A stretch of DNA of 64,000 nt from Verrucomicrobiia bacterium (GTDB lineage: Bacteria; Verrucomicrobiota; Verrucomicrobiia; JABWAM01): the NCBI GenBank assembly GCA_020849895.1, contig JADZFN010000012.1, forward strand, positions 7,258 to 71,257, read 5' to 3'. Positions within the stretch are counted from its first letter, which is position 1. The number at the start of each line of letters is the position of its first letter. The translations under genes were made by a program, and so were the position numbers. Shown here piece by piece: positions 6,017 to 33,753 of the stretch. A model generated the notes under the pieces. The model worked only from the letters and a program-made list of their open reading frames with translations, did not search any database and was not told where the DNA came from.

Positions 6017-6113
6017 CGAATCCGGTGGTTGGTGCCGGAGGCGTGAGGCCACGACTGAGCGTAAGCACAGGCGAGGTTGCTGCTGCAACGAAATCCCGCG
6101 CGCGGATGTTGGA

Positions 6114-6140: not shown

Positions 6141-6166
6141 AAGGGGAATGTGGGGGAATGCTCTGC

Positions 6167-8337: not shown

Positions 8338-9003
8338 TTAAAACTCGAAGTAGAAATCCTCCTGGACCGTGTCTTTCAGATCGATTTTAGCCACTCGTCC
8401 GTCGGCGAAGGCGGCGTTGAATTTGGAATTGTGACAGGCGGACTCGTTGTAGTTGTCGATCCAGGCCGGCGGGGGGGTCCAACTTGGAATGAAATTATCG
8501 GGGCGAAAGGGCCCGCCGGACGCCCGGGAATCCATGAAGAGAACGAGACGCTCGGGCACCGCCTTCATGCTGGCCTTGCCATCGGACTCGTACACATACA
8601 GGACCCGGTTCAGTGCAATCTGCGTGTAGTGGTAGATGTCAGGGCTGACCGCATAGTTCTTGCTGGAGGGGCACCGCAAGATGGGAGTCAAAGTGCTCGG
8701 CTTGTTGTTTTGAGGGAAGCTCACGGGACCGATATAGGTGGTCAGGTTGCTTGCCCAAAAGTAGGTGTTCGGAGCGTGTTGCTCGTTGTCATTGGCATAG
8801 AGGCGAAGGGCCAAATTCAGTTGCCGCTGATTGTTCATGCAGACGATGGAGTGGGCCTGCTCCCGTGCTGACCTGAGCGCGGGCAGGAGCAGCGCCGCCA
8901 AAATTGCGATGATGGCGATGACGACCAGCAACTCGATGAGCGTGAAGCTCCTGCTGTCCGGCGGTTTCTTAATACACCTTTCCTGAAGGCGGGGAGAATT
9001 CAT
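8338..9003 (-). CDS. prepilin-type N-terminal cleavage/methylation domain protein with C-terminal H-X9-DG motif (DUF1559-like pseudopilin)
   Basis: Start at the ATG giving [43 protein letters not shown]. The track ORF start at 9159 is upstream read-through. C-terminal [12 protein letters not shown] matches H-X9-DG. Lies 78 nt upstream of the propeller gene. Confidence 0.8.
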
Positions 9004-9402: not shown

Positions 9403-11964
9403 CTACGATTCCACTGCCTTCCAGGGCTTCTCGATCAACGGCGACACCCTTCCCTTCACCACAGTCGCGCCTTGCTCATCGCGGAGGAACGAGCCGTTGA
9501 CGACCGCCGCGCAGCGGCGATTCCCGTCCGCTCCGAAGCGCTCGACCGCGAGCCACCCGTCCGTCCGCCCGCCCACCGCAGGGCGCGCGTCCCAGCCACC
9601 CCAGCGGATGTGGAGAACATCCCGTGCGCCCTCGCGGAAGACCACCTCCACACAGGCGCCTCTGTCGTCCGTCCCCACCACCCGCACGGCGGGCGTCAGC
9701 GGCTCTCTCGCCGAGGGAACGAGCGCCCATACCTGCCGCATCGGCAGCGTCCCTTCCCAGTGGTGGATGGCGCAGAAGGCGGGGAAGCAGTTGAAATCCT
9801 GCGCCACCCAACCTTGCACGGGGTCCATCTGGCCGCTCACGGCCCGCAGCGACCAGCCTTCTTGGAGGGCGGGCGCGATCTCGAAGTTGGACAGCGCGGC
9901 GCGCGCGGTCGCCGCGCGGAGACCTTTCACGACGACGGGCATCGGCGCGAAGTGCCACAGCGCCTCCGCGGAGTGCTTCCCCTCCCCCTCGAGCTCGTCG
10001 ACCACGAGCCAGTAGTCGGGCTTCAGGAACAGGACCGCGCGGCGGTGCAGGGGCTCTCCCGTCACGCCGGGGTAGCCCCCGGCGTAGACGCCGGCACCCA
10101 CGTCGAGAGTCCCTCCGCTCGCCCAAAAGATCTCGCTGGAGACGTCGCGCTTCCTCGACTCTCGCGTCTCGGAGACGGCCCTCTGCTGGCCTTTTCCGTC
10201 CACGAGGAGCGTGTTGTGGGACGCCGTGGAGCGGTAGTACCGGAAGAACTCGTCCTCGCCGTAACCCGCGATGCCGGGGTCCACGAGGAAGGGCGAGCCG
10301 AAGGCATAGGTCTCGACCCCGAGGGCATCCTCGTGCTGGTGGCCCGCGCCGAACGGCCCGACGTCGAAGAGCGACCACCGGTCCTGCGCGTTCACGCCCG
10401 AGCGCATGACCAGGAGACCTGCGTTCCGAAAACCGTGCGACTCGCCCGACGGAGGTCGCCCCTCGGCGCCGCCGGTGGCGAGCCAGAGCATCCCCGCGTC
10501 CTTCCAGAGCCGCGCCCCCTCTCGAAGGAAGAGATCATGGGACCGCAGGAATCCGCCGGAATCGTTGTGAGCGGGGCAGGTGCCGTCCGGCCGCACGAGT
10601 CCCGCGATCGCGCTGTACATGGCGCGGAGCCGCGCGCCATAAACGCGCGGCATGGGGAAACCGTTGAGCCGCGCCACTTCGAAGGGCTGGACGAAGGCGT
10701 TCGCCGAGCTGATGTGGTAGCCGGGCGAAAGCTCGTTGTGGATGCCATCGGGGTAAACCGTCTCGGCCGCCAGCGCCGCGAGGCGGCCCAGGCCCTCGTC
10801 GCGCCACGAGGCGGACCGGCGGTGCTCTGGGAACGAAATCCCGATAAGCGAAAGCGCCTGCGACTCGATCACCGTCCAGTTGGTGCCCGAAATCGAACCG
10901 TGCCGAAGGAGAAACTCCGCGTGCTCGTGCATGGACTTGAGCATGTCGAACCAGGTGCGGTCCCGCAGCGCCGGTTCCCCGAGGAGACCGAAGAAGACCT
11001 GCAACCACGTCCGCTTGAAGCGGCACCCCGCCGTGAGGGTACTCCAGGCGCGACTCCCCTTGCCATCGTGCCCGACCGGCACCGGCGAGGCGGCGATCCA
11101 CGACGAGAGCACCTCGTCGATCTTGGCGGCGTACTTCCGTTTCCTCGCCGCGTGCCACGCGAGGAGCAGGTCCACCACGAAGTAGTGGCGGTGCAGGCCG
11201 TCCGGGTCCCCGACCTCGCCCGTCGCCAGCTTCCAGTCGAACGTCGGACCGAGGTCCTGTCCCCCGACCACGTTGCGGCAGGCGAGGTCCGCCACCGCCA
11301 GCGAGGTCGGCCACGCCGGGGGCGCAGCGAACGGGAGGCTCGGCTTCTTTCGCCGCGCGAGGTACGCGCGCAAGCCGCGGATCGCCCCCTTAAAGTCCCC
11401 CCGCTCCACCGAGAGCCGAGCCGCCTTGAGGCCGGGGCGGCCCCAGTCCCACGCCCGCGCGAAACCGGTGTCGGTCAGACGCGTCCCCGCAGGCACGCGG
11501 CGCTTCTGCAGGCGCACCGACGCGATCCGCGTCGGGCCGCCGTAGTAACCCCGGACTTGAACGCGCGTCACCCTTCCCCAGATCGAGCCCGGGACGAGGC
11601 CGAAGTTCTCGATCGGGTAGAGCACGTCGCGCCAGCCGTGCCAGCGCTCGCGCGTCATCGCGCCCGCACCGGTGATGCACCGGAGCCTCGGCTTTCCCTC
11701 ACGCTCCACGGTCACCTGGAGCTCGCACCCTTCCCCCTCGCGGAAACCGACGCGCAAAACGACCTGGTCGAAGTCTCCCCAGTCTCCCGCGCAGGGGAGC
11801 TCGACCTCCTGCTTCGACGCGTCGTATAGGGCGCAGGGAACGCCCTCGGGGGAACCTCTCCCGCCATCGGCGAGCCCCGGTGCCGCGGCGAGTTCCCCCG
11901 CGCCGAGCAACACCCGCTCGGCGAGGAGCTCGTCGGTCAGAGTTTCGGGGATCGTGGAGGCCAT
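9403..11964 (-). CDS. heparinase II/III-like family protein (putative polysaccharide lyase)
   Basis: Hepar_II_III core GHQHEDALGVETYAFGSPFLVDPG plus the NELSPGYH and AHNDSGGF blocks. Paralog of 1375..4005. ATG at 11964 (MASTIPE...), 1 nt after the stop of the upstream gene. The antisense 785-aa ORF is shadow. Confidence 0.7.
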   Translation of the reverse strand: MASTIPETLTDELLAERVLLGAGELAAAPGLADGGRGSPEGVPCALYDASKQEVELPCAGDWGDFDQVVLRVGFREGEGCELQVTVEREGKPRLRCITGAGAMTRERWHGWRDVLYPIENFGLVPGSIWGRVTRVQVRGYYGGPTRIASVRLQKRRVPAGTRLTDTGFARAWDWGRPGLKAARLSVERGDFKGAIRGLRAYLARRKKPSLPFAAPPAWPTSLAVADLACRNVVGGQDLGPTFDWKLATGEVGDPDGLHRHYFVVDLLLAWHAARKRKYAAKIDEVLSSWIAASPVPVGHDGKGSRAWSTLTAGCRFKRTWLQVFFGLLGEPALRDRTWFDMLKSMHEHAEFLLRHGSISGTNWTVIESQALSLIGISFPEHRRSASWRDEGLGRLAALAAETVYPDGIHNELSPGYHISSANAFVQPFEVARLNGFPMPRVYGARLRAMYSAIAGLVRPDGTCPAHNDSGGFLRSHDLFLREGARLWKDAGMLWLATGGAEGRPPSGESHGFRNAGLLVMRSGVNAQDRWSLFDVGPFGAGHQHEDALGVETYAFGSPFLVDPGIAGYGEDEFFRYYRSTASHNTLLVDGKGQQRAVSETRESRKRDVSSEIFWASGGTLDVGAGVYAGGYPGVTGEPLHRRAVLFLKPDYWLVVDELEGEGKHSAEALWHFAPMPVVVKGLRAATARAALSNFEIAPALQEGWSLRAVSGQMDPVQGWVAQDFNCFPAFCAIHHWEGTLPMRQVWALVPSAREPLTPAVRVVGTDDRGACVEVVFREGARDVLHIRWGGWDARPAVGGRTDGWLAVERFGADGNRRCAAVVNGSFLRDEQGATVVKGRVSPLIEKPWKAVES

Positions 11965-11965
11965 C

Positions 11966-12766
11966 CTACTTCCCATCCGCGAGCGAGAAAGAAACCTCCA
12001 ATTCGAACCCGCCCTGTGACGCGAACTCGCGTGAGGTGAAGGCGGCGTAGCCGTGGTCCTGGGCCCAGAACACAAACCCGCAACTTTTCCCCTCCTTCGC
12101 CATTGCCTGCACGAGTGCGGTCACGTCCGCGGTGAAACGCCCCTTGTCGGCGGAGTTCCAGCTGTCGGCCTGGACGGGCACCTCGGGGTCCTGGGTGAAG
12201 TCCTCCGTGCCGAAACCCCGCTTGTCATTGGGTGTGCCGGCCGGGACCCTCCACTCGGCGTCCTTCGCCTTGCCAGCCCAGGCACCCCCGTACTGAAAGG
12301 CGGCGTCAAAGGTTGGCCCATAGTTCGCGTTCTGCTTGTCGTCCGCCTCGACGGCGCCTCCCGTTCCCTCGGGGCCGGCGTCGCCGGGCGTTACGTACGA
12401 GAGCCAATCGGTGAGGCAGCGCCCCACGAAGATCTTGCCCTTCGCGGCGCTGTAGTCGTCCACGTAGAAGCTGCCGCAGAGGGTGGCCTTCACGATGCGG
12501 GCGCCCGGCGGGACGTGGCTCGGCCCGATGAGGCCCTTCACGCCCACCAGCCCGTAGTAGAAGGTTTGTCCGCTGGACTGAAAACCAACGCGCACCTCCT
12601 TCAGTTTCCCTTGGTTGAAGTTCTCGCGCCCGCCGACCACGTCGTGACCAACGTAGGTGTCCTCGATCTGGTCCGGAGCGAAATGGAGGATCTTCACCTG
12701 GGCGGAGGCCGCGCACGCGCCGGCGACGGTCAGGACGGTCGCAAGCAGGAGGGAGGAAGGTTTCAT
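11966..12766 (-). CDS. secreted ConA/LamG-like domain protein (putative carbohydrate-binding)
   Basis: Start at MKPSSLLLATVLTVAGACAASAQ (signal peptide). The 468 nt of open frame upstream lacks protein-like composition. LamG-like block GSFYVDDYSAAKGKIFVG. Tightly coupled to the downstream lyase. Confidence 0.45.
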   Translation of the reverse strand: MKPSSLLLATVLTVAGACAASAQVKILHFAPDQIEDTYVGHDVVGGRENFNQGKLKEVRVGFQSSGQTFYYGLVGVKGLIGPSHVPPGARIVKATLCGSFYVDDYSAAKGKIFVGRCLTDWLSYVTPGDAGPEGTGGAVEADDKQNANYGPTFDAAFQYGGAWAGKAKDAEWRVPAGTPNDKRGFGTEDFTQDPEVPVQADSWNSADKGRFTADVTALVQAMAKEGKSCGFVFWAQDHGYAAFTSREFASQGGFELEVSFSLADGK

Positions 12767-13285
12767 GGAGAACCCATCATGCGCCACCGCGCGAGTTTCG
12801 GGCAATCGCACGCGCGTGGCAATTCCTGGGAGCGAGGTCATGGGAACGGGGAAAGTTCGCGGACGATTTCGGCGTAACGGCGGACGCGCGCGACCGGGGT
12901 TGCGGGGGTGACGGGGCTGCCGAGGCTCATGATGAAACGGCCGACGTTGCGGCGGCCCGCGTCGAGCTGGCGGGCGAGATCGCCCTCCCCCGAAGCGGCA
13001 AAATCCTCGGGGTCGAAAGGAACGGCCGCCGGGACCATCGCATCCACCCCTGCTTCCGTCCCCGCGAGGCGCGCGAGGGAGCGAGTGATGCGCTCCGGCG
13101 ACCACGGGCTTCTCAAGGCGACGCAACTCCCCGCCGCGCGGATCCACGAGGCACACGCCACTCTCCGGCTCCTCGATGCGGAACCGCTCGCGATCTCGGC
13201 GCGGATGGGAGGGACGGACGTCGAACCAGTCCATCGCGGGGCGAACGGAGGAGCTTGCCCACGTTCCGAGGCACGCGGAACCACT

Positions 13286-15382
13286 TCAATCCCTGACGGC
13301 ATAGGGCGCCCCTTGCCTCGGGGTCTCGAGGACCTTCCGCGCAGCGCTCACGCGGCGAATCTTCGGAGCACCGTTCACGTAGAGGTTGCCCCCGAGGAAG
13401 AGGAACCGGTGCGCGCCGGGAACGCGGCCGAGGGGGAAGATTTCGAGAGGGTCGGGGGCGATGCGCAGGATCGCATCCATCTCCGCGGCCACGGAGACCC
13501 CGGTCCAGACCTTGCCGTCGGGGCCAAGGATGAAGTCGAAACCCTTGGCGGGCAGGGCGGTGGTGCCCTGCCTCCCCTGGATCAGGCCCGTGTACCGGAT
13601 GATCTCCTCGATCTTCTTCTTCCGGAGGTCGTAGCGGTAGACGAAGGTGGTCTTCTGCTCGGCGTCGGGAGCGAGACCCACCAGCTTGTTCGGTGCCACC
13701 TCGGCGACCCCCGTGAGCGCCTTGAAGCCCGGCAAGGGCACGTGGTCTTCGAGGTATTTCCGCTCGGCGAGGTCCACCACCCGCAGGCGGGCCTCGGCGG
13801 GAACCGCGGCGACAAGCTGGCGATTGGTCTGCACGGTCGTCGAGAGGAACAACCGCTTGCCGTCAAGCGAAAGGCTCGCCCAGGAAACGGCGAGGTGGTC
13901 GTTCCCGCCGCGGTCCTCGATCTCCCCCCTGGTCCCGTCGGCGGGGTTGTACCACACGACGTCGAACCCGAGGAAATGGCGATGCCTCGCGGTGACGATG
14001 TAGACGCAGCCATCCGGCCCCTTGAACATCCGCACCCCCATGTGCCCTCCGGAGCTGGTGTGTCCCGGAAAGTGGGCGACGAGGCGCGGGTTGGCGCGAG
14101 GGTCCTCGTCGGGGATCGCCGGTCGTCCCGGGAGGTCCACGCGGGAGGTCGAAGGCTTGGTGGTGTCCCAGCGCATGAGGGTGGTGCTCGGATAGCCGCT
14201 CGCGTAGACGGTCGGCCCGATGGCGACCATGCAGCGCCCGCTCACCGGCGCGAACGGGGCCTGGATCCCCTTGCCCGTTTTCGGGTCGAAGACGATCGCC
14301 GGGTTGTAGGGTCCCCCGAGCGCCGTGATGCGTCCATCGTCGAGCGCGGTGAGCGCCAGGGTGGGTTCACTCGCGAGGGGGGTGTCCAGGCGGACGTCCT
14401 TCCACTTGTTTTCGTCCTTCGGGTCCTGGTAGTGGATCGCGATCTTGGTCTGGCCCTCGAACAGGGGCGATTCGTCGAGGAGGACCTTCGGAGGAGGCTC
14501 AGCCACAGGCTCCGGAGCCTTGGCGGCGGGGGCATCGGCAGGCAGCGGCGTCGCCCGCCCGTTCGCCACGCCGTAGCGTTGCCAGGGGTCGTTGGGATCC
14601 TGCATGTTCACCCGCGTCGAGAAGTTGGTGCCACTCCCGTTGATGTAGCCGTCCACCGGCGCTGTGAGGATCGTCTCGCGGGCCTTCGTCTTCTTGTTGA
14701 CGGCCACCAGCAACCACGGGCTCTTGCCCCGCAGCGCGGCGTAGATGAAGTCGTTGTCCGAGCCGAGCTCGTAGACGTAGCCGTGCTTGTCGGAGAGGAT
14801 GCCGAACTTCGTCAGCGCCCCGCTCCCCGGGTCGTACATGCTCAACTCGGAGGCGGCGGCCGCGCCCATGGCAACCACGCCGTCCTGGGCCACCGACATT
14901 CGGAACGCCCCGACTTCGGCGTTCTCAAACGGGAGCGGCAGTTCGCGGATCGTGTCCGTGTCGGGATCGTAGACGTGGAACCCCCCGGGCAACCATGTGG
15001 TGAAGTAGAGCTTCCCGCCGGACCAGGCCGTGCGGCTCTGGCCGTAGCCCTTGATCTTGGGGTGCAGCTTGAGCTTGCCGTCGTCCAGCGTGAGCGTGGC
15101 GACGCGAAACTCCCGTGCGTCCCGCTTCTCCTTAAGGACGAGCATCTGGCGCCACTGCTTGGTGGAGGTCTGGAAGATGGGTCCCTTGCTGACCCAGGAC
15201 TGCGCGCCGGCGATGCCGACCTCCTCGGTCTCGAGGAGGGGGGTCGCCTCGGCCTTCAAGGGGACCGCGGGCATCTCGTCCAACGGATTGACGGCAAGGG
15301 CGACGCCCGCCAGGAGAATCGCGCAGCCCAGCGTGGCAAAAAGTCCTGAGAGGTTCTTGGCTATTCGGGTCGTCGGGTTCAT
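13286..15382 (-). CDS. secreted beta-propeller-like repeat protein, family paralog 3
   Basis: 698 aa with a signal peptide ([30 protein letters not shown]). Shares the [10 protein letters not shown] / [12 protein letters not shown] architecture with 6217..8259. Its start overlaps the upstream H-X9-DG gene by 4 nt. Confidence 0.65.
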
Positions 15383-16059
15383 TTGGGTTCAAAGGTGTGC
15401 ATCGCGCTCGAACTCTGCGAGAGTTCCTCGATCTTGTGGGACGCGGCGTGGCCGTCCACGAAGAAGACGTTGGCGCGGTTGCGGTGGTAGTATCCGGTCT
15501 GGTTCGTCGGGCTGCCGGGCACGTAGTAGGGGCGGTCGGATGGATCGCGACCGGCGTCCACGAAAAGCACCGTGGCCGCGGGACGGAGGACCGCCGAGAG
15601 AGGGATCGGGATCTCGAAGTAGCGCGGATTCGCCGGGTCCGAGGGCCAACTCGCGCCAAGGAAGCTGTTGAAGCCGTAGAGGGTATCCAGGCCGCCGAGG
15701 TTGGTGGCCTTGGGCTGGCCGGGACAGCGAAACACGGGCTTGATCTTGTCCGTGTCAGACACGGTGGCGAACTTCCCGAGGTTGAGGTAGGAATAGAGCC
15801 GTCCCGTCCAGTACTGGTTCACGGGGTTGTCCGTGGCGTATTGGGTCCAACGGTAGGAAAACCTACCCCCGGACTCGTCCGCGTACATGAGGCCCGCCAC
15901 GCCGATCTGGCGGAGGTTGCTTATGCACTGAGCGCTCCTCGCGGCGTCCCGCGCGTTCCTGAGCGCAGGGAGAAGGAGTGCTGCAAGGATCGCGATGATC
16001 GCCACGACGACCAGCAACTCGATCAAGGTGAAGGAATCCCGGTAAGAGGCTCGATTCAT
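15379..16059 (-). CDS. prepilin-type N-terminal cleavage/methylation domain protein with C-terminal H-X9-DG motif
   Basis: [33 protein letters not shown] followed by [12 protein letters not shown]. 4-nt overlaps on both sides (PEP-CTERM gene upstream, propeller downstream). Confidence 0.85.
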
Positions 16060-17789
16060 TCGGGCCGCACGCGGTGCGCCCGGCGAACGAGGAGGAGCGC
16101 GCCAAGGGCGACGAGGGCCAGCGAACCCGGCTCGGGGATCAGCGCGATGGGCAGGAGAGACCCCCCCCCGTTCAACAGGTAGCTGCCCCCGGTGCCCCCC
16201 GAGGCCAGGACGGGGTTAAGGTCGGCGACGTAATAGATGTTGAAGCTGCTGATGAGCGAGTTCGTGGCGATGGGGCTGAGGACCTGCACGTAAAGCGCCG
16301 TGCTCGCTAGAGAGTTGCCCGAGAAGAGCTGGAGGCGGTTGCCGCTCGCGAACCCGTCGAGGTCGAGGGTGCCGAGGGAGAAGTTGTTGCTGAACCCGAT
16401 CGTGGTCGCGCCGAGGTCGAACCCCGCCAACACGAGCCTCTGCGTGGCTGTGGCGGTCACGGGGCTGAACTTGAGCGTGCCGTCGAAACTGAATGCGTTC
16501 GAGACCGCGAGCGGTGCGACGTTGGAAAACCCCAGCGTGCTCTTGACCTCGACCAGGGCCGACGCTCCGACGGCGAGCTGCTGGAGGTTGGTCCCGAGCC
16601 GCACCCGGTCGGCGAGGAGGACGCCGTTGGTCATGTTGAAGGAACCCTTGCCGAGGTCCCCCACGCGCACGTGCGCATTGAGTGAGCCGTTGGTGACGAC
16701 GACCCGCCCACCATACTGCTCGAAGTAGCCCACCCCGTTCGCGTGGGCGCCGACCATCAGGGCGCCGGCGCTCGTGCCGTCGCCGTTGGCCGTGAGGAGA
16801 CCGCTGGCCACGACGAGCGTGACGGTCCCGCCGTTGTTCGATCCGACACGGATCTCGCCGGTGTCTGCGCCCACGCGGACGACGGTGGTGGTGCCGCCCT
16901 GCTGCACGAACCAGGCCCTTGCCCCCACTCCGTTGCCGATGCTCAGGTCGTTGTTGGCGTCGTTCATATTCCAGACGGCGCCCCGGTTCGTGATGCTGGC
17001 GTTCTGCCCGCTGAGGGCCACCCTGCCGCGCGTGCGGTCGAAAACCCCTCCGGCGAGGGTGAGCGATGCCGAGGTGTCGCCGCTCACGCTGACTGTCACG
17101 CTCCTCAAAAGGCTGGTCTCGGAAAGGCCGCTGTTGTCGATGTAGGCCACCTTCGTGCCCTGGCTGTACATACTGACATGCAGGAGGGTGTTGGTCACGT
17201 AGAGGCTGCCAGCCCCGATGACATTGTCGCCCACGGTGAGAGTGGCCGAATGGGTCCCGTTGGTGACGATCAGGCTGCCGCCGCTGAATGACGCCATCGA
17301 GCCGCTGCCGGAGCCGCCGATCCCGAAGTCGCGGTTGCCGGCCGGGGAGGTGATCGCCACGGAAGACCCGTTCTTCGCGATGAGCTGGCCGCGCACCCGG
17401 AGGTTGGTACCCACCGAGAGGGCGGTCCCGTCGAGAACGAGCACGCCCCGCTCATTGACCACGTTGGTGGTGGTGATGCGCCAAACCGTGGAAGCAGTCA
17501 CGGCGGAGAGCGTCTGCGTGGGGCCGGCTCCGCCCGTCTGGTGGCCGACCGCGAGGCTGAAGTTGGTGAGGGAAGCCCCGTCCGTGCCCGCGTCAATGGC
17601 GACCGTGTAGGAGGAGGCTGCGTTGGTGACAAAAACCGCGTGCGTCGCGGAGGGAGCCGCCACGGCGCTCCACTGGGCGGCATTCGTCCAGTCGCCGGAC
17701 CCGCCGGCCCAGACGTTGGTGGTGGACTGCGCACGGCCCGAAGCGGCGAGCGCCACAATGAGGAGAGCGATGCCCAAGAAACGGTTCAT
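16056..17789 (-). CDS. PEP-CTERM sorting domain surface protein with autotransporter-associated beta-strand repeats
   Basis: Signal peptide [22 protein letters not shown]. Gly/Ser/Thr/Asn-rich beta-strand repeats. C-terminal [23 protein letters not shown] is a PEP-CTERM anchor. A GGAGG RBS lies 7 nt before the ATG. Confidence 0.8.
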
Positions 17790-17875
17790 GACGAGTCCTC
17801 CGTGTTTCTACGCCTCCTATTCTACCTGGCCTCTCCTATGAACCAAGCAAAAACGGCTAGGCGGTTGAGCCAGAT

Positions 17876-17893
17876 GACGGATTGGCCTACTCG
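17876..17893 (-). promoter_or_regulatory. conserved 18-bp promoter-region motif GACGGATTGGCCTACTCG (copy B), 86 nt upstream of the PEP-CTERM operon start codon
   Basis: Exact 18/18 match to 24990..25007. A TAGAAT -10-like hexamer lies about 50 nt downstream on the transcribed (minus) strand. Confidence 0.45.
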
Positions 17894-17918
17894 ACCACCC
17901 GCGCCCTGACACGGCGAC

Positions 17919-19322
17919 CTATCCGCCGAGGCCCTCGCCTTCCGGTGGCTCGACGCGCTGAACGGACCCCGCCGAGTCCCTCGAGAGGGAGGCGCCGCGG
18001 ATGCGCGTGAAGCGGATCGAGGGCCCGGCCGAACGGGGCGCGGCCACCTCCAGCCGGTGGACCCGAAGGTCGCGCCCGTCCTCGACCTGCAGCTCCGGCC
18101 CCTCCTCGCATGCGAGGCGCACGTCCTGCAACTCGAGTGCGGCCACGTGCCGCGCCCAGAAGGCCTTCCTTGCCGCGATTCGCACCCCGACCATCCGGAC
18201 CCCCTCGAGAGGACACTCCTCAAGCCCGTGAAGGTAGGCGGCCTGTTCGGCCCCCGTCGCCTCGACCTGGTGGAAGCTGAAGTTGCGGAAGCGCGGGGTG
18301 CGCTCGCTGAGCGGCTCCGGCGGCATTGGCCGCGCGTAGTGCATGTCGAAGTGAAACGGATGCGGCACGCGGTCCATGACCACGTTGCTCGCGAGGAGGT
18401 TCTCCACGAGACCGCCGCGCCCGCGCATGGATTTCATCCGAAAGCCGGTCTCGGTCCCGATGAACAGGCAGTTGCTCACGGTGACGTTGCGCACGCCCCC
18501 CGACATGTCCGACCCGATGACCACTCCCCCGTGCCCCCGCCGCGTGACGCAGTTGGCGATCACGACGTTCTCCGTGGGCCCCAGGCCGGCCTCGTTCCAC
18601 CCGCTCTTGAGGCAGATGCAGTCGTCGTTCACGTCGAGGTCGCATCCCAGGACGAACACGTTGCGGCAGGAATCGAGGTCGATCCCATCGCCATTGCAGG
18701 CGCCGGGCGGGTTGCGGAGATTCACGCCCTCGACGCGCGCGACGTCGCAGGAGATCAGGTGCAGGTTCCAGAAGCCCGAGTTCTGAAGGGTGACTCCCTC
18801 GACCCGGACGTCCCTGCAACGCTCGAACTCGACGAGGCGCGGGCGGTGCCATATGCTTCGCTGGACTTCCTCCGGACGGGTCGGCATGGGCTGGGGTGGC
18901 GGTCGCTTCTCCTTCGGGACCGCGTAGTAATCGCGGATCGGCTTCCAAAAGGCTTCACCCTGCCCGTCCACGGTGCCGCGCCCCGTGATCGCGACGCGCT
19001 CGCAGTCCACCGCGTTTACGAGGGCGTCAATCGTGAGCTGCGTCGTCCCCGAGTACCGCCGCGTGACGAGCCGGTAATGCGGGCGCTCGGGCGTCCCGAG
19101 GAGGGTCGCGCCTGCCTCGAGGTGGAGGGTCACGTGGCTGCGGAGATCGATCGGCGCGATGAGATAGCGCCCCGGCGGAACGACGACGCACCCTCCGCCG
19201 GCCTCCCCGCAGGCGTCGATGGCCGCCTGGAGAGCGGCGGTGTCGAGGGCAAGTCCATCCCCCCGCGCGCCGAAGTGGCGAGGATCAAACACGCGCGGGT
19301 TTTTGCTCGTCGGATTGCTCAT
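17919..19322 (-). CDS. glycoside hydrolase family 28 (polygalacturonase/rhamnogalacturonase-like)
   Basis: GH28 signature blocks NGDGIDLDSC, NDDCICLKSG, RRGHGGVVIGS and GFRMKSM in a right-handed beta-helix context. No signal peptide. 23 nt after the upstream lyase gene. Confidence 0.8.
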   Translation of the reverse strand: MSNPTSKNPRVFDPRHFGARGDGLALDTAALQAAIDACGEAGGGCVVVPPGRYLIAPIDLRSHVTLHLEAGATLLGTPERPHYRLVTRRYSGTTQLTIDALVNAVDCERVAITGRGTVDGQGEAFWKPIRDYYAVPKEKRPPPQPMPTRPEEVQRSIWHRPRLVEFERCRDVRVEGVTLQNSGFWNLHLISCDVARVEGVNLRNPPGACNGDGIDLDSCRNVFVLGCDLDVNDDCICLKSGWNEAGLGPTENVVIANCVTRRGHGGVVIGSDMSGGVRNVTVSNCLFIGTETGFRMKSMRGRGGLVENLLASNVVMDRVPHPFHFDMHYARPMPPEPLSERTPRFRNFSFHQVEATGAEQAAYLHGLEECPLEGVRMVGVRIAARKAFWARHVAALELQDVRLACEEGPELQVEDGRDLRVHRLEVAAPRSAGPSIRFTRIRGASLSRDSAGSVQRVEPPEGEGLGG

Positions 19323-19345
19323 GCCGGGACGCTCCTGCTCGAGGC

Positions 19346-22300
19346 CTATCGGACCCGGATCAACCGTCGTCCATTGGCCAAGGCCTCCTCGGTGAAGGAT
19401 GTCGTGATCCCCCCGGTCTCGTCGATGACCGAGCTCGCGGCCTTCCAGGTAGCGCCCTCGTCGGCGGAGACCTCCACTTGTCTTCCCGGGAGGGTGAGGG
19501 TGCAGGCCGCGTTCGCACGGAGCTCGAAGACACCCGGGCCCCGCGCGTCGAGGCGCCGCAGGAAAAGGTGCGCGGCGACTGAAACCCGGTCGCCGGGGCC
19601 CTGGTCGTGGAAAACCACCATACGGCGTCCATCCCCGTCGGAATCCGGCAGGTCCGCCTCCTGGAGTTTGCGGCCTTCCACGCGCAGCCGGTAGGTGTCA
19701 CCCGGCATGTCGACGGTCCACTCGCGATCCCCCCGCTCGTTGCGGACAAGTTGCTGGTGGTAGGGCCAGCCGGGGTGCGGATCATTGGACGCGTCGAGGT
19801 ACTCTCGGGGGTGCTGGCGGGTGAAGAACATCAGGCCGTCCTCGCGGATCCGGGTGACCTCGAGATCGAGCATCTTCTCGCCGGGCTGGACCTCCACGAG
19901 GGTCTTGCCATCCGGCGCAAACTTGCGCTGCTTTTCCGTCGCAATCATGGCCAAGGTCAACTTGCCGTCCCCGTTGGCGTCCGTCACGTCCTGCTGCAAG
20001 AGGGTGTTCTGGTGGCGTCGTGCCGCGGGCCATCCGGTGTAGAAGAACCGGTCGCCGAGGGTGACCGAGACGCGGCCGATCGCTTTTCCCGCCTCGTTGA
20101 CCGCGGTCGTTCCCTCATACGCCTCGGGGTGATAGCTGTGCAGGTACGGGGGAACATCCAGCTCGGCGAACCCCTCCTTCGCGTCCAGGCGTCCCACACC
20201 GCCCTGGTAGACGGCCGAGGGGCGGTCGAACTCCAAGCGCGTGCCGTTGATGCGGGCCGCTTTCCGCGTGGTCTGGTGGCGGGGGTTGGCCACCTCAAGG
20301 ATCTCGCCATCGAGCAGCCGGGCCGGCCACGCGTCGCTCAGGGTGGCGATCCGTCCGCCGTCCGTCGTCGCCCTGATCTCCGAGCGGTATTCCGCCCGCG
20401 CGAGCCTCGCGGAAATCCCGGAGTGGGAGACCTCCGTCCCTCCCACGAGGCCGAGCAGCCGCAACCCTCGGGCATCCCGGGAGATGAACGCGAGATTTCC
20501 AGAAGCCCGCGCGTTTCCTTCGATCGCAGCGGACTTCGTGCGATCCGGGCCGGAGAAGAGAAGGTCGGTCTGACCGAACGCGGTCTTCACCTCGATCGCG
20601 ACGGCCCGGGTGGCGCCCTCGCCCGCGTTCTCAACCTTCAACTGTCTCACCGAGGTCACAAAGGGCTGGCCCGCGTACGGTTCGATCACCGAGGGATAGA
20701 CCGAGCCCGAGACCTCCGCACCGTCGCGGCGCACGTAAAGGAACGGAAAATTGTAGAAGCGCGAATCCATTTTCTTCGCGTACCAGTTGGCCACCATCAC
20801 CTTCTCCCCGCCGTGGCCGAGGAGGTGGACCTTCGTGAATTTCTCGGGGGCGGCCGGGTCGTACGATTTCCCGGACATCGCTCGCTCGGCGTTGCCCAGC
20901 TTGATCCCGTTCACGACCTCTTCCTTGCGCCGCAGTTTCCAGGTCGCCTCCAGCACCTCGGGGGCGACCCCCTCCCTTGCAGTGCCCTCGAGGTGCTCCT
21001 TCAGGTAGCGCTGGGCGACCCCACTCGTCGCCGGCGCCAGTCCGGCGTTGCTGGTGAACTCCTCCGAGACACACCCGTGGAAACACCAGGTGTGCGTCCT
21101 TCCGCCCCGGACGCGGAAGACATCGAACAGGTAGCCGCTGGGGGTTCTCTCCCTTCCGTTTCCCGGGTCGCACATCACCTGCAGCACGCCGCGTGCGTAG
21201 AGAGAGACCTGCGGGTGCGTCTCGGCCCTGGCCCCGCCGAGCACGTACTGCGCGCCCGGCAGTGGTTTGAAGGCGTCCAGCCACCCGAGGGCGGTCGTGT
21301 TCTGCGGCCCGCCGGAGAAATCCTGCTCGTCCACCTGGACGACGTTGTGCACGTACGAACTCATGCACGACGGGTGGCCGTACCGCCCAAGATGCCGACC
21401 TCCAAGATCGCTGCTCATTCGGAAACCGTGCGCGTATACCTCCAGGTCAAGGGTGTCGGGGTGCGCGTGCCCCGAACCGATTCCAAAGCGCAGCATCGCC
21501 GCGTTCTTGTGCCGCAGGTCCTCCGCGTCGGAGCCTTCCTCCAGCACGGCGATCCCGAAACCCTCGAGGACCCGGCTCGCGGCGTGGCGGACCGGGTCTC
21601 GTCCTGCCTGCGCAGCCTTCACGATCTGCTGCCATTCCGCGTCCGGGCAGGCGCCCTGGCCCATTTGGTTCGCAAGCACCCAGGCGATCCGCGGGTCTTT
21701 CGTCCATTCCCAGCTTCGGAGGAAGTACTCGCGCCACGCGGGGTCGTACATGAGCTTCGGGGCGAGGGTCGGCGTACCTACGTCGCCCACGCCCGCCGCA
21801 TGCCCGCCGGCCACGTGCAGCCCGAGGATCGAGGCCGCCTGCGCGGCGAGTTGCGGGAAGCGGGACGGGTTGACCACGTCGAAGCGCTTGTCCCCGCCCG
21901 CCGAGACGTGGCGGGCCAGCAAGTCCGCCACCTCGAAGAGTTCGTCCTTCGACTCGAAAGGGGCGTAGTAAGTCGAGCCGATGTAGTTCAGGCCGTCGCG
22001 GCTGTAGTTCCCCACCACGCTGTCGGGAAAACCGCAGAGAGTGTTGCGCAAGTAGATGCGTCGGAAGTATCCGTCAAGGATCCGCGTGCTGACTTCGTTC
22101 GGGCCAAGCACGGCCGCCGAGACGGGGACCACGGTCTGCGCGTAGAAGACGTGCTGCACGCCGTCCTGCGCCCCGCGCTGCACCAGGAAGGTGTCCAGCA
22201 GGCGAATGACGTCTTCCGGCGACCTCACCCAGGGGATGAACCGCCCCAGGCGCGCGGCGAGCTCGGCGTTTCCCTGGATGTAGGGGAAGAGCTTGTCGTA

Positions 22301-23626
22301 AGCGTGGCAGAGCCGGACATACTCGGGGCCGCTCCATTGCCCCGCGGGGCCGCGACCACCCTCGCCCGCCCTGAAGGCCCGTCCAGGGTAGTAGATGTTC
22401 TCCACCGCGTGCAGCTTGTAGTCGTAGCCGGGAAACCGGTACGCGACCGCGGCCAGAAGGAACGCGGCGTCCGCCGCGGCCCCGAGGTCGTCATAGAGCA
22501 GGTAGCGGTCCGCAAGGGAGGGCTTCTCGGGATCGCCGCCGCACAACGCCCCCATCATCGCGGCGTATCGGCTGCCGATATGGCGCGGAAGGATACCGTA
22601 GTTGAACGAGGCCTCGAGGCCGGTCTTCTCTTTCTCGTAGAAGAAACCGCCGCCGTCTTCCGGAAAGGGCCAGGGCGCGGGCAGCGGGCGGCCCGCGCGG
22701 TAATCCGCCATCGTGTATCCCAACGCGAGGGTGCGGTTGGTGAGCGTGCCCGGCTGATCCCAGACCGCGCCATGGGCGCTCACCCAGTTGCCGAGGGGCT
22801 TCCCAAGGACTTTCTCCTGATGGGAGATCGCCTGCTTGAGCATGTCCGACGCCTTCGGCGCGCATATATCGAGGAGGTAGTAGTTCCCGCAATTCGCGTT
22901 GATGGGCATCAGCGACTCGTTCCAGATCACCCGGTCGCGCGCCGCACGCACTTCCATCGAAAGGGGCGCGGACTGGACCGGCGCGTGGACCCTTCCCCCT
23001 TTCGCGGCAGTCGCCCGAAGCTGTTGGATTTCCTCGGGCGTGGAGAGCGTACGGCGGTTCTTGAGCGCGCGGAACGCGAAGTTCGCAAGAGGGTTGCGCA
23101 ACTCCACGCGGTCGACCACCAACTCGCGGATCCGTCCGCGCGGGCCAAGATAGATTTCGGCAGAGTAGCCCCGCTCCTCGGGCGTGTGGAAGTAGATGCG
23201 GGCGACGTGCTCGTACAGGCCGCGTTCGGGGAGCGGCACGCGAAGCCGGTACTCCTCCGCCCCGCCCCCGGGGGCGCTGTTCACCTTCAGGTGGAGGTAG
23301 AGCGGCACGGCCTCCCGCGTGCCCGGTCCCGCCACAAACGGGTCGGGACCGCCAAGCCGGGCGGCAACATGCACACTGTGCATCCCCACGGGCAGGCGGC
23401 CAAGTTCGAGCCTGAAGCCCGAGCCTTCCCCCGCGAGGAGCACGGCCTTGCCTCCGCTGGCGGCCCGATCGTCGATAACCCTGGCCGCGCCCAGCGCCGG
23501 GAGGGTTTCCGCCTCGAACGACCGAACCAAGGGGTCCGGCTCGAGCACCTGGGTCAGCGTGTCGAGGTGGGCGAACGCCGTCGGGACAGCGAGCAGGCAG
23601 GCAAGCGGAACAGCGGGGAGCCTCAT
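19346..23626 (-). CDS. large secreted heparinase II/III-like family protein (putative polysaccharide lyase, 1426 aa)
   Basis: Signal peptide MRLPAVPLACLLAVPTAFA. Hepar_II_III core IGSGHAHPDTLDLEVYAHGFRMSSDLGG. Its ATG overlaps the upstream stop (ATGA). The antisense 1435-aa ORF is shadow. Confidence 0.65.
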   Translation of the reverse strand: MRLPAVPLACLLAVPTAFAHLDTLTQVLEPDPLVRSFEAETLPALGAARVIDDRAASGGKAVLLAGEGSGFRLELGRLPVGMHSVHVAARLGGPDPFVAGPGTREAVPLYLHLKVNSAPGGGAEEYRLRVPLPERGLYEHVARIYFHTPEERGYSAEIYLGPRGRIRELVVDRVELRNPLANFAFRALKNRRTLSTPEEIQQLRATAAKGGRVHAPVQSAPLSMEVRAARDRVIWNESLMPINANCGNYYLLDICAPKASDMLKQAISHQEKVLGKPLGNWVSAHGAVWDQPGTLTNRTLALGYTMADYRAGRPLPAPWPFPEDGGGFFYEKEKTGLEASFNYGILPRHIGSRYAAMMGALCGGDPEKPSLADRYLLYDDLGAAADAAFLLAAVAYRFPGYDYKLHAVENIYYPGRAFRAGEGGRGPAGQWSGPEYVRLCHAYDKLFPYIQGNAELAARLGRFIPWVRSPEDVIRLLDTFLVQRGAQDGVQHVFYAQTVVPVSAAVLGPNEVSTRILDGYFRRIYLRNTLCGFPDSVVGNYSRDGLNYIGSTYYAPFESKDELFEVADLLARHVSAGGDKRFDVVNPSRFPQLAAQAASILGLHVAGGHAAGVGDVGTPTLAPKLMYDPAWREYFLRSWEWTKDPRIAWVLANQMGQGACPDAEWQQIVKAAQAGRDPVRHAASRVLEGFGIAVLEEGSDAEDLRHKNAAMLRFGIGSGHAHPDTLDLEVYAHGFRMSSDLGGRHLGRYGHPSCMSSYVHNVVQVDEQDFSGGPQNTTALGWLDAFKPLPGAQYVLGGARAETHPQVSLYARGVLQVMCDPGNGRERTPSGYLFDVFRVRGGRTHTWCFHGCVSEEFTSNAGLAPATSGVAQRYLKEHLEGTAREGVAPEVLEATWKLRRKEEVVNGIKLGNAERAMSGKSYDPAAPEKFTKVHLLGHGGEKVMVANWYAKKMDSRFYNFPFLYVRRDGAEVSGSVYPSVIEPYAGQPFVTSVRQLKVENAGEGATRAVAIEVKTAFGQTDLLFSGPDRTKSAAIEGNARASGNLAFISRDARGLRLLGLVGGTEVSHSGISARLARAEYRSEIRATTDGGRIATLSDAWPARLLDGEILEVANPRHQTTRKAARINGTRLEFDRPSAVYQGGVGRLDAKEGFAELDVPPYLHSYHPEAYEGTTAVNEAGKAIGRVSVTLGDRFFYTGWPAARRHQNTLLQQDVTDANGDGKLTLAMIATEKQRKFAPDGKTLVEVQPGEKMLDLEVTRIREDGLMFFTRQHPREYLDASNDPHPGWPYHQQLVRNERGDREWTVDMPGDTYRLRVEGRKLQEADLPDSDGDGRRMVVFHDQGPGDRVSVAAHLFLRRLDARGPGVFELRANAACTLTLPGRQVEVSADEGATWKAASSVIDETGGITTSFTEEALANGRRLIRVR

Positions 23627-24900
23627 GCGCGCCTCATGCCCGGCGCTCCCCGCGAAGGGGGACCGACCGCTGCCGACGGCGCCCGCGCCGAACGCTCGCG
23701 AGATCCGCGCCCCGCTGAGGGTTCCGCGGGCGGAGGCGGCGGGATGTCCACCGGGATTCTCGTTTCAACACTCCGGTCGATGGCCTCGCACAGGGCGACC
23801 GCGTTGCGCCCATCGAGGATGTCGGGGTGGACCTGGCGGTTGTTCCGGATCGCGTCCTCGATCAGCAGGGACATGCTCTTTTCGCCCCCGCCATGCGCCA
23901 CTCCCTGGGGATAGAAGTTGGCGCGCTCGACGCGGGCCGAGTCACGTGGGCGATACTCCAGGAAGAGCCGTTCGTCCATCGCGTAGCGGACGAAGATCGC
24001 GCCCCTGTCGCCGATCACCTCGTAGGTGGTCTGGTACTCGGGCGTGAACTGGCACTCGACGTAGCTGCAGCGCCCGCCCCCCTTGTAGTCGATGGTGGCG
24101 ATGGCGTTGTCGTAGACATTCGTCTCCCGCGCGAACACGCAGAGCGAATCGGGGAAGGGAAACGGCATCCCCCCGATGAGGGCCTTGTCGCCGTTCTCCG
24201 GACACGTGCCGCGCTCGTCGCACGCCCTGCACTTGAGGTCGTCCGGCTTGTCCCCGCCGAAGTGATCGAGGCCACCCGACGCGAAGACGCGCACGGGGTC
24301 GTCGCCCATGAAGAGGTTGCAGATGTCGAGGAAGTGGACCCCCTTCGCCAGCGTCAGCGACCGCACCTGGTCCTTCCGTCGATAGCGGGAGGCGCGGTAG
24401 AAGCACGCCCCCATGCCCACGCTGTCGAGGCAGGTCACCAGTCGCACCTTGCCGACCGCCCCCTCGTCGATGAGTCTCTTCGCTTCCTGGATCAGAGGAC
24501 AGGTGCGGATCTGCATGTCCACGATGCCGATCCTCCCCGATCGCCTCCACGCGGCCACTAGGCGGTCGGCTTCCTCGATGCTCTGGCACATCGGTTTGGC
24601 AACCTGGATGTTGAGACCCGCTTCTAGGCAGTCGATGGCATTCTGGGCATGGTGGTTGTCCCACGAGTTGATCGTCACCACGTCCGCGTCCGCGCGGGCA
24701 AGCCAGGACGTGAGATCGGACGTGAACTCCGCCTTCGCAGCCTTGTCTCCGAAGAACTGCTTTGCCTTGTCCAGCGCCGCGGGGCTGGGGTCCACCACCG
24801 CGACAACTTCGCAATGGACGAACCGGAGCCAGTAGTTGATGACATGTCGGCCCCGTTCGCCCGCCCCCAGGAGCGCGACTCGGATGGGATTTTTATGCAT
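23623..24900 (-). CDS. Gfo/Idh/MocA family NAD(P)-dependent oxidoreductase
   Basis: Rossmann N-terminus MHKNPIRVALLGAGERGRHV after the ATG at 24900. The track start at 24960 is upstream read-through. Pro-rich C-terminal tail. Overlaps the start of the lyase gene by 4 nt. Confidence 0.8.
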   Translation of the reverse strand: MHKNPIRVALLGAGERGRHVINYWLRFVHCEVVAVVDPSPAALDKAKQFFGDKAAKAEFTSDLTSWLARADADVVTINSWDNHHAQNAIDCLEAGLNIQVAKPMCQSIEEADRLVAAWRRSGRIGIVDMQIRTCPLIQEAKRLIDEGAVGKVRLVTCLDSVGMGACFYRASRYRRKDQVRSLTLAKGVHFLDICNLFMGDDPVRVFASGGLDHFGGDKPDDLKCRACDERGTCPENGDKALIGGMPFPFPDSLCVFARETNVYDNAIATIDYKGGGRCSYVECQFTPEYQTTYEVIGDRGAIFVRYAMDERLFLEYRPRDSARVERANFYPQGVAHGGGEKSMSLLIEDAIRNNRQVHPDILDGRNAVALCEAIDRSVETRIPVDIPPPPPAEPSAGRGSRERSARAPSAAVGPPSRGAPGMRRA

Positions 24901-24989
24901 GGGGAACTCCTTCCGCGGCGGCGACCTGCTCAAGCTTCCGTGGGCGTCGGCGACAGGCAAGGGGATTGCCGTAGGGAAATCATGGCCCG

Positions 24990-25007
24990 GACGGATTGGC
25001 CTACTCG
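24990..25007 (-). promoter_or_regulatory. conserved 18-bp promoter-region motif GACGGATTGGCCTACTCG (copy A), 89 nt upstream of the Gfo/Idh/MocA-lyase-GH28 operon start and just downstream of araC
   Basis: Identical to 17876..17893. Lies in the 111-nt araC-operon spacer. Confidence 0.45.
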
Positions 25008-25011
25008 GGTT

Positions 25012-25884
25012 TCATGCCCCCCTTCCCCGGGCCACGCTGCCACGGCGCTGGGCAAACGAAGCGGTCGGGTTGGTCCCAAAGTGTTCCTTGAACGCCTTGC
25101 TGAAGTCGTTGGGATAGTGGTAACCCAACTGGTACGCGACTTCCTTCACCGACATCTGCCGCAGCATCTCCCTGGCGCGCTCCATCTTGAGCTGCTGGAA
25201 GAAGGCCGCGGGCGACCTCCCGAGGCCATCCAGAAAGGCGCGCCGAAGCGTCGAGGGGGAGACCTGCAGGTAGTCGCAGATATGATGGACGGGGTTGGCG
25301 ACTTCCAGGTGCTCCCGCATCCAACGGACCGCGAGGGCGCACGGTCCTTCCTGCGACAACACCGATATCCCCGCCCCGCGGGAACGCGCCAGCGCCACTT
25401 CCAGCGCCAGGCGCAGGTGCTTGAGGGCGAGCGGCGTGAACTGGTCCGAATAAAAGACCTCCTGGCGACATTCGGCGTGGATCTGCTCGAGACGGCGCAC
25501 GACCCCCGGGCTCGCCTTCCAGCGGAGCAATCCCTTCCGCGGGGGAATGCAGGCCTCGCAGGCCGGCGGGGCCTCCCACTGCCACACCAGCACGTTCGAC
25601 TGACGGTCGCTCACGTCCCACAGCGACTGAACGCACCCCGGCGCGAACACGAAGACGTCGTTCGCTCCCACGGGAAACTCCTTCAGCCCCCAGCGGAGGA
25701 TGGGATTGCCCCGGCGGATCACGTGCCAGCCCCACGCCGTGGCCGGCACGTGCGGGGAAGGTTTCTGCCCATAGAACCGGTGGCCCCACGCGAGGTAGAG
25801 AAGATCGAGACGCGAGCCGCGGGGACGCATCCAGTGGAGCCGGTGCGGCGTGGGGAACGTGGAGACCTGGACCGGATCGTCCAT
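25012..25884 (-). CDS. AraC family transcriptional regulator
   Basis: C-terminal AraC HTH (ICDYLQVSPSTLRRAFLDGLGRSPAAFFQQLKMERAREMLRQMSVKEVAYQLGYHYPNDFSKAFKEHFGTNP). Cupin-like N-terminal part. ATG at 25884 (MDDPVQV). Confidence 0.85.
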   Translation of the reverse strand: MDDPVQVSTFPTPHRLHWMRPRGSRLDLLYLAWGHRFYGQKPSPHVPATAWGWHVIRRGNPILRWGLKEFPVGANDVFVFAPGCVQSLWDVSDRQSNVLVWQWEAPPACEACIPPRKGLLRWKASPGVVRRLEQIHAECRQEVFYSDQFTPLALKHLRLALEVALARSRGAGISVLSQEGPCALAVRWMREHLEVANPVHHICDYLQVSPSTLRRAFLDGLGRSPAAFFQQLKMERAREMLRQMSVKEVAYQLGYHYPNDFSKAFKEHFGTNPTASFAQRRGSVARGRGA

Positions 25885-26063
25885 CCGTCCGGTCAGCCTA
25901 CCCCTCCTGCGCCAAGAGGGCAATCCTCCGCTTTCTGCACGGCGGACGGGTGCGCGACAACAAGGTTGGCGAACCGCGTCCGATGGGTCTCTGATTGGAG
26001 CCGCGACGCCCCCGTCGCGCCCTGTCCTAAATTAGGAAGGGCCGCAGTTCGGTGAGCGAGAAG

Positions 26064-26137
26064 TGGCTACCCGAGAAGGATTCGAACCTTCACTAAAGGC
26101 TCCAAAGGCCTCTGTGCTACCATTACACCATCGGGTA
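26064..26137 (-). tRNA. tRNA-Gln (anticodon UUG)
   Basis: Cloverleaf folded by hand: acceptor UACCCGA/UCGGGUA with the U1:A72 pair typical of bacterial tRNA-Gln, D-arm GUG-UAAUGGUAG-CAC, anticodon stem GAGGC/GCCUU with loop CUUUGGA, T-arm GAAGG-UUCGAAU-CCUUC, discriminator G, CCA encoded. Confidence 0.85.
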
Positions 26138-33731: not shown

Positions 33732-33753
33732 GATCGGCAGTCGCGGTTTCTCC

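Follow-up and report, generated by a model that had tools for sequence, protein, structure and literature searches.

An 18-bp repeat ahead of two polysaccharide-degradation operons in an uncultured Verrucomicrobium, a probable site of the adjacent AraC-family regulator

Introduction

What reads an identical 18-bp word that stands ahead of two operons of one carbohydrate cluster? The question is raised by a 64,000-nt stretch of DNA from an uncultured Verrucomicrobium (assembly GCA_020849895.1, contig JADZFN010000012.1, positions 7,258 to 71,257 of the forward strand), referred to here as the window, in which one copy of the word adjoins the gene of an AraC-family regulator. A first-pass annotation had proposed that the word is an operator or activator site, plausibly for that AraC protein, and the conservation of the box next to AraC orthologues and ahead of orthologous target genes supports the proposal. 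We consider it probable that the 18-mer is a site of the adjacent regulator and that it co-ordinates two polysaccharide-degradation operons; judged by the sequence, a dimeric activator site of the AraC/RhaS kind serving both operons is the most likely reading. To our knowledge transcriptional control in the Verrucomicrobia is almost unstudied, and we found in the literature no operator for any AraC-type regulator of verrucomicrobial glycan-degradation clusters.

Results

The window contains two exact copies of the word GACGGATTGGCCTACTCG, copy A at 17876-17893 and copy B at 24990-25007. Both are on the plus strand; the adjoining genes are all encoded by the minus strand, on which the word is CGAGTAGGCCAATCCGTC. 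Neither copy is coding, and each stands ahead of a minus-strand operon. Copy A lies inside a 129-nt gap that runs from the GH28 stop codon at 17919 to the ATG at 17789 of a gene for a 577-amino-acid (577-aa) protein, with 86 nt between motif and ATG. Copy B starts 4 nt past the stop codon of the AraC-family gene (25014..25012), directly downstream of it as had been noticed before, and lies 89 nt from the ATG of a Gfo/Idh/MocA oxidoreductase gene at 24900. A scan of the window and a reading of the sequence thus agree with the first-pass annotation on both positions and both distances. There is no third copy in the window at up to three mismatches (0.14 expected; 1 of 100 shuffles gave at least two).

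How surprising the repeat is depends on the DNA that is considered. A chance match had been called negligible, which does not hold for the window as a whole: it contains two other exact repeats of at least 18 nt (one in palindromes of the repetitive extragenic palindromic (REP) type, the other in the prepilin N-termini of DUF1559 paralogues), and by our own estimate about 0.2-0.3 exact 18-nt pairs are expected in random DNA of its composition. The claim does stand for non-coding DNA. The repeat is significant because both copies fall within the 7.7 kb of non-coding DNA, where the longest word common to different stretches was 12-16 nt in 200 shuffles, compared with the 18 nt observed. Among 185,579 species genomes, which do not include the source metagenome-assembled genome (MAG), there was one exact match to the 18-mer, in an unrelated gammaproteobacterial MAG.

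The evidence that carries the argument comes from other lineages. Comparison loci were fetched via proteins, using AraC orthologues and, separately, orthologues of the 577-aa target. The box is present on every fetched contig with an AraC orthologue of at least 50% identity, which adds four other metagenomic lineages. At L003/L004 (AraC 66% identical) the box is GTAGGCCGATCCGTC, its TAG is the stop codon of the AraC gene, and a Gfo-family gene comes next, in the same AraC-box-Gfo order as in the window. L005 (AraC 53%) has two boxes: GTAGGGAAATCCGTC precedes the AraC start by 9 nt and is on the other strand (L005a), and GTAGGCGATTCCGCC falls on the AraC stop codon (L005b). L006 (AraC 53%) also has two: ATAGGATATTCCGCC, likewise 9 nt ahead of the AraC start, heads an orthologue of the 577-aa gene (51% identity), and the second site heads a DUF1559/prepilin-like gene with a homologue of the 698-aa protein of the window. 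At L007 (AraC 51%) the box stands 1 nt after the AraC stop and heads a DUF1559 gene. The reading frame of the box relative to the AraC C-terminus differs among these lineages, and its conservation is therefore at the level of DNA and not of coding sequence.

The route via the 577-aa target, which is independent of the AraC gene, also recovers the box. L048, from the same sample as L004, carries an orthologue of the 577-aa protein (73% identity) with a site that scores 46.5 bits; this locus and copy A share a 41-nt block of about 83% identity, and the sequence upstream of the box is unrelated. From L049/L050, which belong to the L005 lineage, the operon that follows the L005a box can be read: it consists of the 577-aa orthologue, a prepilin-like gene, an orthologue of the 1426-aa protein of the window (66%), a 621-aa gene and a second prepilin-like gene. 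Together with L006, the box is thus found upstream of orthologues of the 577-aa gene at L048 and L049/L050/L005.

The box is absent at L043-L047, where AraC homologues of 40-42% identity lie in similar pectin-type clusters. The recognition helices of the diverged homologues and of the box group differ (S(P/A)STLRR and YPNDFSKA versus PATLTR or SSNLHR and HPNDFSRA). It is likewise absent upstream of the 577-aa orthologue (51%) in L051-L053, contigs without an AraC gene. In that lineage a perfect 14-bp palindrome, GCAATTCGAATTGC, lies upstream of the 577-aa orthologue (L051 ~856-869, also in L052 and L053), which suggests a different regulator there. A strict scan of metagenomes for TAGGNNAWTCCGYC-N9-A-N4-CC-N12-CTT returned 34 loci of mixed G+C, roughly as many as chance alone would give, which suggests that the element, in this exact form at least, is not widespread.

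In order to define the site we aligned nine sites without gaps, leaving out L008 (AraC 49% identity), which offers only degenerate candidates. The strong box reads RTAGGNNAWTCCGYC in gene direction, with a conserved core of 15 bp; the 18-bp word is the stretch identical in this genome. TAGG, C20 and a CTT at +29..31 are invariant in the alignment, and an AA and a CC are nearly so. With the final base of the box as zero, conservation downstream is seen at +10 (A), at +15..19 (CC(T)A(C)) and at the invariant CTT. The flanks of the two copies had been described as wholly unrelated, which overlooks these positions at fixed offsets downstream of both. The CCTAC of the promoter-proximal part mirrors the GTAGG of the box, and it is here that a second half-site appears.

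At copy A the strong, promoter-distal half-site (17876..17893, minus strand) matches exactly, with the core GTAGGCCAATCCGTC at 17890..17876. It scores 49 bits with a position weight matrix (PWM), compared with a shuffle maximum of 17; copy B scores 38 bits. The orthologous site in L048 retains ATAGGCCGATCGGTC of copy A. The weaker, inverted half-site of copy A (17857..17871, minus strand) is GGCTCAACCGCCTAG, the reverse complement of CTAGGCGGTTGAGCC, and lies 4 bp from the strong half; it has p=0.0014 against the distal-box PWM at this pre-set position, and the block is nearly identical in L048. At copy B the strong distal half (24990..25007, minus strand) is again an exact match, and the weaker inverted half (24971..24985, minus strand) is CCATGATTTCCCTAC, the reverse complement of GTAGGGAAATCATGG, with p=0.0005 at the fixed position and the best reverse-complement match within the 81-nt region. 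In this test the reverse complement of alignment columns 25-39 was scored with a matrix built from the distal boxes only, and the position-specific p-values for the inverted second half range over 0.0005-0.14, values that are inflated by the phylogenetic relatedness of the sites. Over the nine sites, an inverted copy at this one offset is the clear maximum of 90 combinations of offset and orientation (Fisher X2 89 versus 57 for the next best). A direct-repeat second half-site of the AraC kind was also tried and shows no consistent offset, the inverted arrangement being preferred. Because the inverted offset is the clear maximum and there is no consistent direct repeat, we read the element as an imperfect inverted repeat in which 4 bp separate a strong half on the promoter-distal side from a weak half on the proximal side. 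Nothing else in the window scored above shuffles in the PWM scan for further weaker sites.

The candidate binder is the 290-aa protein encoded at 25012..25884 on the minus strand, which is assigned to the AraC/XylS family by its HTH_18 domain and its predicted fold, and is a candidate by its location. The Pfam HTH_18 match (4e-21) covers residues 202-275, and its sequence matches in the PDB are AraC-type DNA-binding domains. The structural model (mean predicted local distance difference test score, pLDDT, 79.6) has a cupin-like beta-barrel at residues 17-123, two long helices at 126-170 and a seven-helix C-terminal domain with a double helix-turn-helix (HTH). The modelled C-terminal domain superposes on 3oio, 3mn2 and 3lsg (template modelling score, TM, 0.77-0.83, target-normalised). 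Foldseek with the whole model finds ToxT and Rns over the full length, and for the N-terminal domain the sensing and dimerisation domains of AraC, RhaR and BgaR (TM 0.6-0.72, target-normalised); some homologues of the regulator have a Pfam cupin_2 match. The protein therefore has what marks AraC/XylS proteins, a C-terminal DNA-binding domain some 100 residues long that contains two HTH motifs, and its model places an N-terminal cupin barrel with helices in front of it, as in AraC and RhaR. A further feature of such systems is, as a rule, a pair of half-sites of about 17-18 bp at the promoter, either ahead of the -35 or across it; here there is an 18-bp word with a weaker inverted half 4 bp away, whose position at a promoter follows from putative hexamers only.

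Just upstream of the AraC start, at 25887..25929, is a weak box-like pair found with the PWM, GTAGGCTGACCGGAC at 25901..25887 on the minus strand and AGAGGGCAATCCTCC at 25915-25929 on the plus strand. Both are among the top ~13 of 128,000 positions for the distal-box PWM. They stand back-to-back, unlike the strong sites, and the pair could possibly serve as an autoregulatory site, a suggestion that we make tentatively.

Where the core promoters lie can be suggested by reading the sequence downstream of each copy. For operon A, the operon downstream of copy A, a putative core promoter at 17819..17846 (minus strand) would consist of a -35-like TTGGTT (17846..17841), a 16-nt spacer and a -10-like TAGAAT (17824..17819). 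This TAGAAT had previously been placed about 50 nt after the AraC-adjacent copy; it actually lies 51 nt downstream of copy A (17876). For operon B, downstream of copy B, the corresponding candidate at 24932..24960 (minus strand) has a -35-like TTGCCT (24960..24955), a 17-nt spacer and a weak -10-like AAGCTT (24937..24932). The CTT at 17847..17845 is the one that is invariant across the nine aligned sites, and copy B has a CTT at the same offset. The -35-like hexamers of the site set begin at this CTT (TTGGTT, TTGCCT, TTTCGC, TTCCAT and so on) and are followed 16-18 nt on by -10-like hexamers of the form yAnnnT (TAGAAT, AAGCTT, CAGCGT, CAAGAT, CATTAT). It is possible, then, that the invariant CTT is the start of a weak -35 element. 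If these hexamers are the promoters, the transcription start would lie ~60 bp downstream of the centre of the palindrome. The earlier suggestion that the site lies upstream of the core promoter agrees with a box that precedes the conserved -35-like CTT/TTG position in this way. Sigma-54 promoters, an extracytoplasmic function (ECF) type -10/-35 within the 18-mer and Bacteroidetes-type promoters were sought by eye, and none fits both copies.

The near-equal spacing of the two copies from their start codons had been presented as part of the pattern. Across the sites the distances from box to ATG are 64, 86, 89, 112-114 and ~150 nt, and because relatives vary from 64 to ~150 nt, the spacing of 86 and 89 nt is not a conserved or functional constraint.

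Discussion

On the reading that we favour, the 18-mer would be the high-affinity half of a composite site of ~34-40 bp for the regulator at 25012-25884. The layout, 5' to 3', would be the strong RTAGGNNAWTCCGYC, 4 bp, the weaker inverted copy ending in CCTAC, ~10 bp and the CTT. We infer that a dimer of the regulator binds both half-sites, upstream of the core promoter, and that it activates the operons rather than represses them. The cupin-like N-terminal domain may sense a breakdown product of a uronic-acid-containing polysaccharide, upon which the dimer would activate two units in parallel: one encoding the Gfo/Idh/MocA oxidoreductase, the 1426-aa protein and the GH28 enzyme, the other encoding the 577-aa protein, the DUF1559 protein, the 698-aa and 422-aa proteins and the heparinase-like lyase.

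Such an arrangement combines features of two well-known systems. RhaS half-sites are 17-18 bp long, inverted and 14-16 bp apart, and AraC half-sites are direct repeats 4 bp apart (PMC11983282). With RhaS and its rhaI1-rhaI2 site at E. coli rhaBAD the locus shares a sugar-sensing AraC-family regulator with a cupin-type N-terminal domain (predicted in our case), two inverted half-sites upstream of the core promoter (a putative one in our case) and a word of 18 bp, the length of a RhaS half-site; the modelled N-terminal domain also superposes on that of RhaR, the paralogue of RhaS (TM 0.72, target-normalised). It differs in that the half-sites are ~4 bp and not 14-16 bp apart, the promoter-distal half is the strongly conserved one, and the site ends ~10 bp upstream of the presumed -35, whereas the RhaS site overlaps it. 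In sequence the protein resembles RhaS within the DNA-binding domain only (37 bits versus a cut-off of 288). With AraC and araI1-araI2 at araBAD it shares a regulator gene that adjoins the (here presumed) target promoter (divergently in L005 and L006, as araC is from araBAD), the 4-bp separation of half-sites, what may be an autoregulatory site where the regulator gene itself starts, and a modelled N-terminal fold that matches 2arc and 1xja. However, AraC uses direct repeats for activation where the second half is inverted here, we see no evidence at this locus for a distant looping site of the O2 type, and the sequence of the box is unrelated to TAGCnnnTnnnnCCnnA.

A third comparison is with the hybrid two-component systems of Bacteroides polysaccharide utilization loci (PULs), in which an AraC-type DNA-binding domain controls adjacent glycan-degradation operons, as we propose for the regulator described here, whose DNA-binding domain has a sequence match to 12aw_A, a protein of a hybrid two-component system. 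Unlike those systems, it is a small cytoplasmic one-component protein with a cupin sensor and no fusion to a membrane kinase. The cluster also lacks SusC/SusD genes and has DUF1559 prepilin-like and PEP-CTERM-annotated proteins instead.

Several observations weigh against a site for this regulator. The link between regulator and box is drawn from adjacency and co-occurrence, and most loci were ascertained via the AraC gene or one target gene, which makes for a biased sample; the inflated p-values of the second half-site belong here too. A consensus scan calls no sigma-70 promoter at either copy (the -35 of copy A matches at only 3 of 6 positions), and under the promoters that we suggest the site does not overlap the -35, unlike those of AraC and RhaS. 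At L003 (1250-1264) the presumed transcription start coincides with the likely ATG: the Gfo-like gene downstream of the box there probably starts at ATG 1262 (MNATRYVRKYALAGCSG...), only 6 nt on from the -10-like CAGCGT. Either the promoter guess holds and the transcript would lack a leader, or the guess is wrong at L003. None of the 34 strict-architecture matches in metagenomes has an AraC homologue nearby. Finally, not every box heads an obvious operon, as the well-conserved box at L005 1122-1136 on the plus strand (L049 7576, minus strand) points into the 3' end of a convergent gene. This is the L005b box on the AraC stop codon; it keeps the CTT at +29 and is followed by a hairpin, and the convergent gene resembles a beta-propeller/oligogalacturonate lyase. 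It may be the relic of an AraC-box-operon arrangement broken by an insertion, or it may be an antisense promoter.

The explanation that we take most seriously besides binding by the AraC protein is that the block is a promoter or operator for a factor encoded elsewhere, an ECF-type sigma factor or another transcription factor, with the AraC gene merely a frequent neighbour. The AA (columns 30-31) and the CTT (49-51) are ~17 nt apart and can be read as promoter elements, one possibility being an ECF-type promoter with AA(A)C at +10..13 as its -35 and CTT at +29..31 as its -10. The absence of a canonical sigma-70 call at either copy would fit this, as would the 64-nt distance from box to ATG at L003, which suits a start further upstream than our sigma-70 guess; and the loci were all ascertained through the AraC gene or its neighbour. 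Yet neither the 26-kb cluster nor the remainder of the window encodes a sigma factor or a transcription factor other than the AraC protein, and the box tracks the recognition-helix subgroup of the AraC proteins, being missing from similar clusters with diverged AraC paralogues. Its position is fixed relative to the ends of the AraC gene in three lineages, and there is exactly one offset at which the proximal block looks like the distal box in reverse complement. On balance we think a factor encoded elsewhere rather unlikely.

The box could in principle act in RNA, as a leader, a riboswitch-like element or a processing site in a transcript that starts upstream, for example by read-through from the AraC or GH28 gene. 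No terminator-like site was called between the upstream genes and either copy, so that read-through is possible, and the orientation of the box always matches the downstream genes. A cis-regulatory RNA is nevertheless very improbable: the box has no Rfam match, the folding z-scores of four leaders (-2.25, +1.67, -1.21 and +0.46) are inconsistent and reveal no common structure, and the L005a and L006a boxes lie in divergent intergenic regions where no co-directional upstream gene could supply the transcript. We give as little credence to the idea that the identity of the two copies is a by-product without regulatory role, due to chance, to a piece of some mobile or dispersed repeat, or to gene conversion or duplication that happened locally and recently. 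The copies in the window are identical even where the lineages differ from one another (the CGA before GTAGG and the middle CC), which could reflect copying; genuine REP-type repeats exist elsewhere in the window, and an 18-mer repeat is not vanishingly rare in 64 kb of DNA with 66% G+C. However, the box is dissimilar to the REP elements and forms no hairpin, only the two copies are found in 64 kb at up to three mismatches, and, as far as REP- or MITE-like elements (MITE, miniature inverted-repeat transposable element) are concerned, PWM matches within the window occur only at the two promoters. The box is also kept at orthologous positions in five lineages with diverged flanks, non-coding shuffles never reach 18 nt, and the lone exact match among the species genomes is in that unrelated MAG.

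We therefore return to a site for the adjacent AraC-family regulator. Most likely it is a control element of an ordinary kind, with a standard activator-site arrangement, previously undescribed, in an uncultured Verrucomicrobium. A bolder claim would be that inverted 18-bp half-sites ~4 bp apart, centred ~60 bp upstream of the start, follow neither the AraC nor the RhaS paradigm, that the regulon links secreted PEP-CTERM-annotated/DUF1559 proteins with lyases and hydrolases, and that this is the first definable operator and regulon of a verrucomicrobial polysaccharide cluster; we hold that claim to be doubtful. Were it true, it would give a handle on the role of the abundant and enigmatic PEP-CTERM/DUF1559 proteins of the PVC (Planctomycetes-Verrucomicrobia-Chlamydiae) group in glycan capture. 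The 15-18-bp box, the nine-site PWM and a defined candidate regulator make the regulon testable, and the box offers a route for assigning DUF1559 prepilin-like and PEP-CTERM-annotated proteins to a specific polysaccharide response.

Gene content and other observations

The carbohydrate cluster occupies positions 1-25,900 of the window and includes two heparinase II/III-like lyases, a GH88 and a GH28 enzyme, a Gfo/Idh/MocA oxidoreductase, two DUF1559 prepilin-like genes and several large secreted proteins without a family match. It is bounded by a tRNA-Gln gene at 26064-26137, and the remaining window is housekeeping. Operon A (9403..17789, minus strand), downstream of copy A, was delimited by open reading frames (ORFs) with overlapping or abutting ends and by domain matches. 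All on the minus strand, it encodes the 577-aa secreted protein (16056-17789), a DUF1559/prepilin-like protein (15379-16059), the 698-aa protein (13286-15382), the 422-aa protein (11966-13234) and a heparinase II/III-like lyase (9403-about 12000). Operon B (17919..24900, minus strand), downstream of copy B and likewise described from domain matches, encodes the Gfo/Idh/MocA oxidoreductase (23623-24900), the 1426-aa protein (19346-23626) and the GH28 polygalacturonase-like enzyme (17919-19322), all on the minus strand. The gene identities given earlier are broadly borne out (HTH_18/AraC, Gfo/Idh/MocA, GH28 and a DUF1559 prepilin-like protein), but neither the 1426-aa 'lyase' nor the 577-aa 'PEP-CTERM' protein gives a match in Pfam or NCBIfam.

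A second exact 18-mer repeat, GACGACCAGCAACTCGAT, at 8920-8937 and 16006-16023 lies within the coding sequences of the two DUF1559 paralogues, inside the part that encodes the N-terminal prepilin methylation motif, and is therefore conserved coding sequence and not a regulatory element. A REPtron-like unit at 5558-6223 contains an ORF of the IS200/RAYT type (RAYT, REP-associated tyrosine transposase) on the minus strand at ~5606-6100, with a Pfam Y1_Tnp match and the HUH motif MPDHLHLL. The REP-type palindromes that flank this ORF share CGTAGGGACACGGCGGGCTACC at 5589, 6119 and 6200, and they account for a 25-nt exact repeat at 5587/6198.

Two further proteins are encoded outside the cluster. 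One, of 787 aa (31416-33779, minus strand), combines a DUF4388 domain, a Ser/Thr protein kinase domain and a C-terminal FGE-sulfatase (formylglycine-generating enzyme-like) domain. The other is a single ORF of 856 aa (44199-46769, plus strand) with an SBP_bac_1 (extracellular solute-binding) and a BPD_transp_1 (ABC permease) domain, which could be a genuine fusion or an artefact of crude ORF calling.

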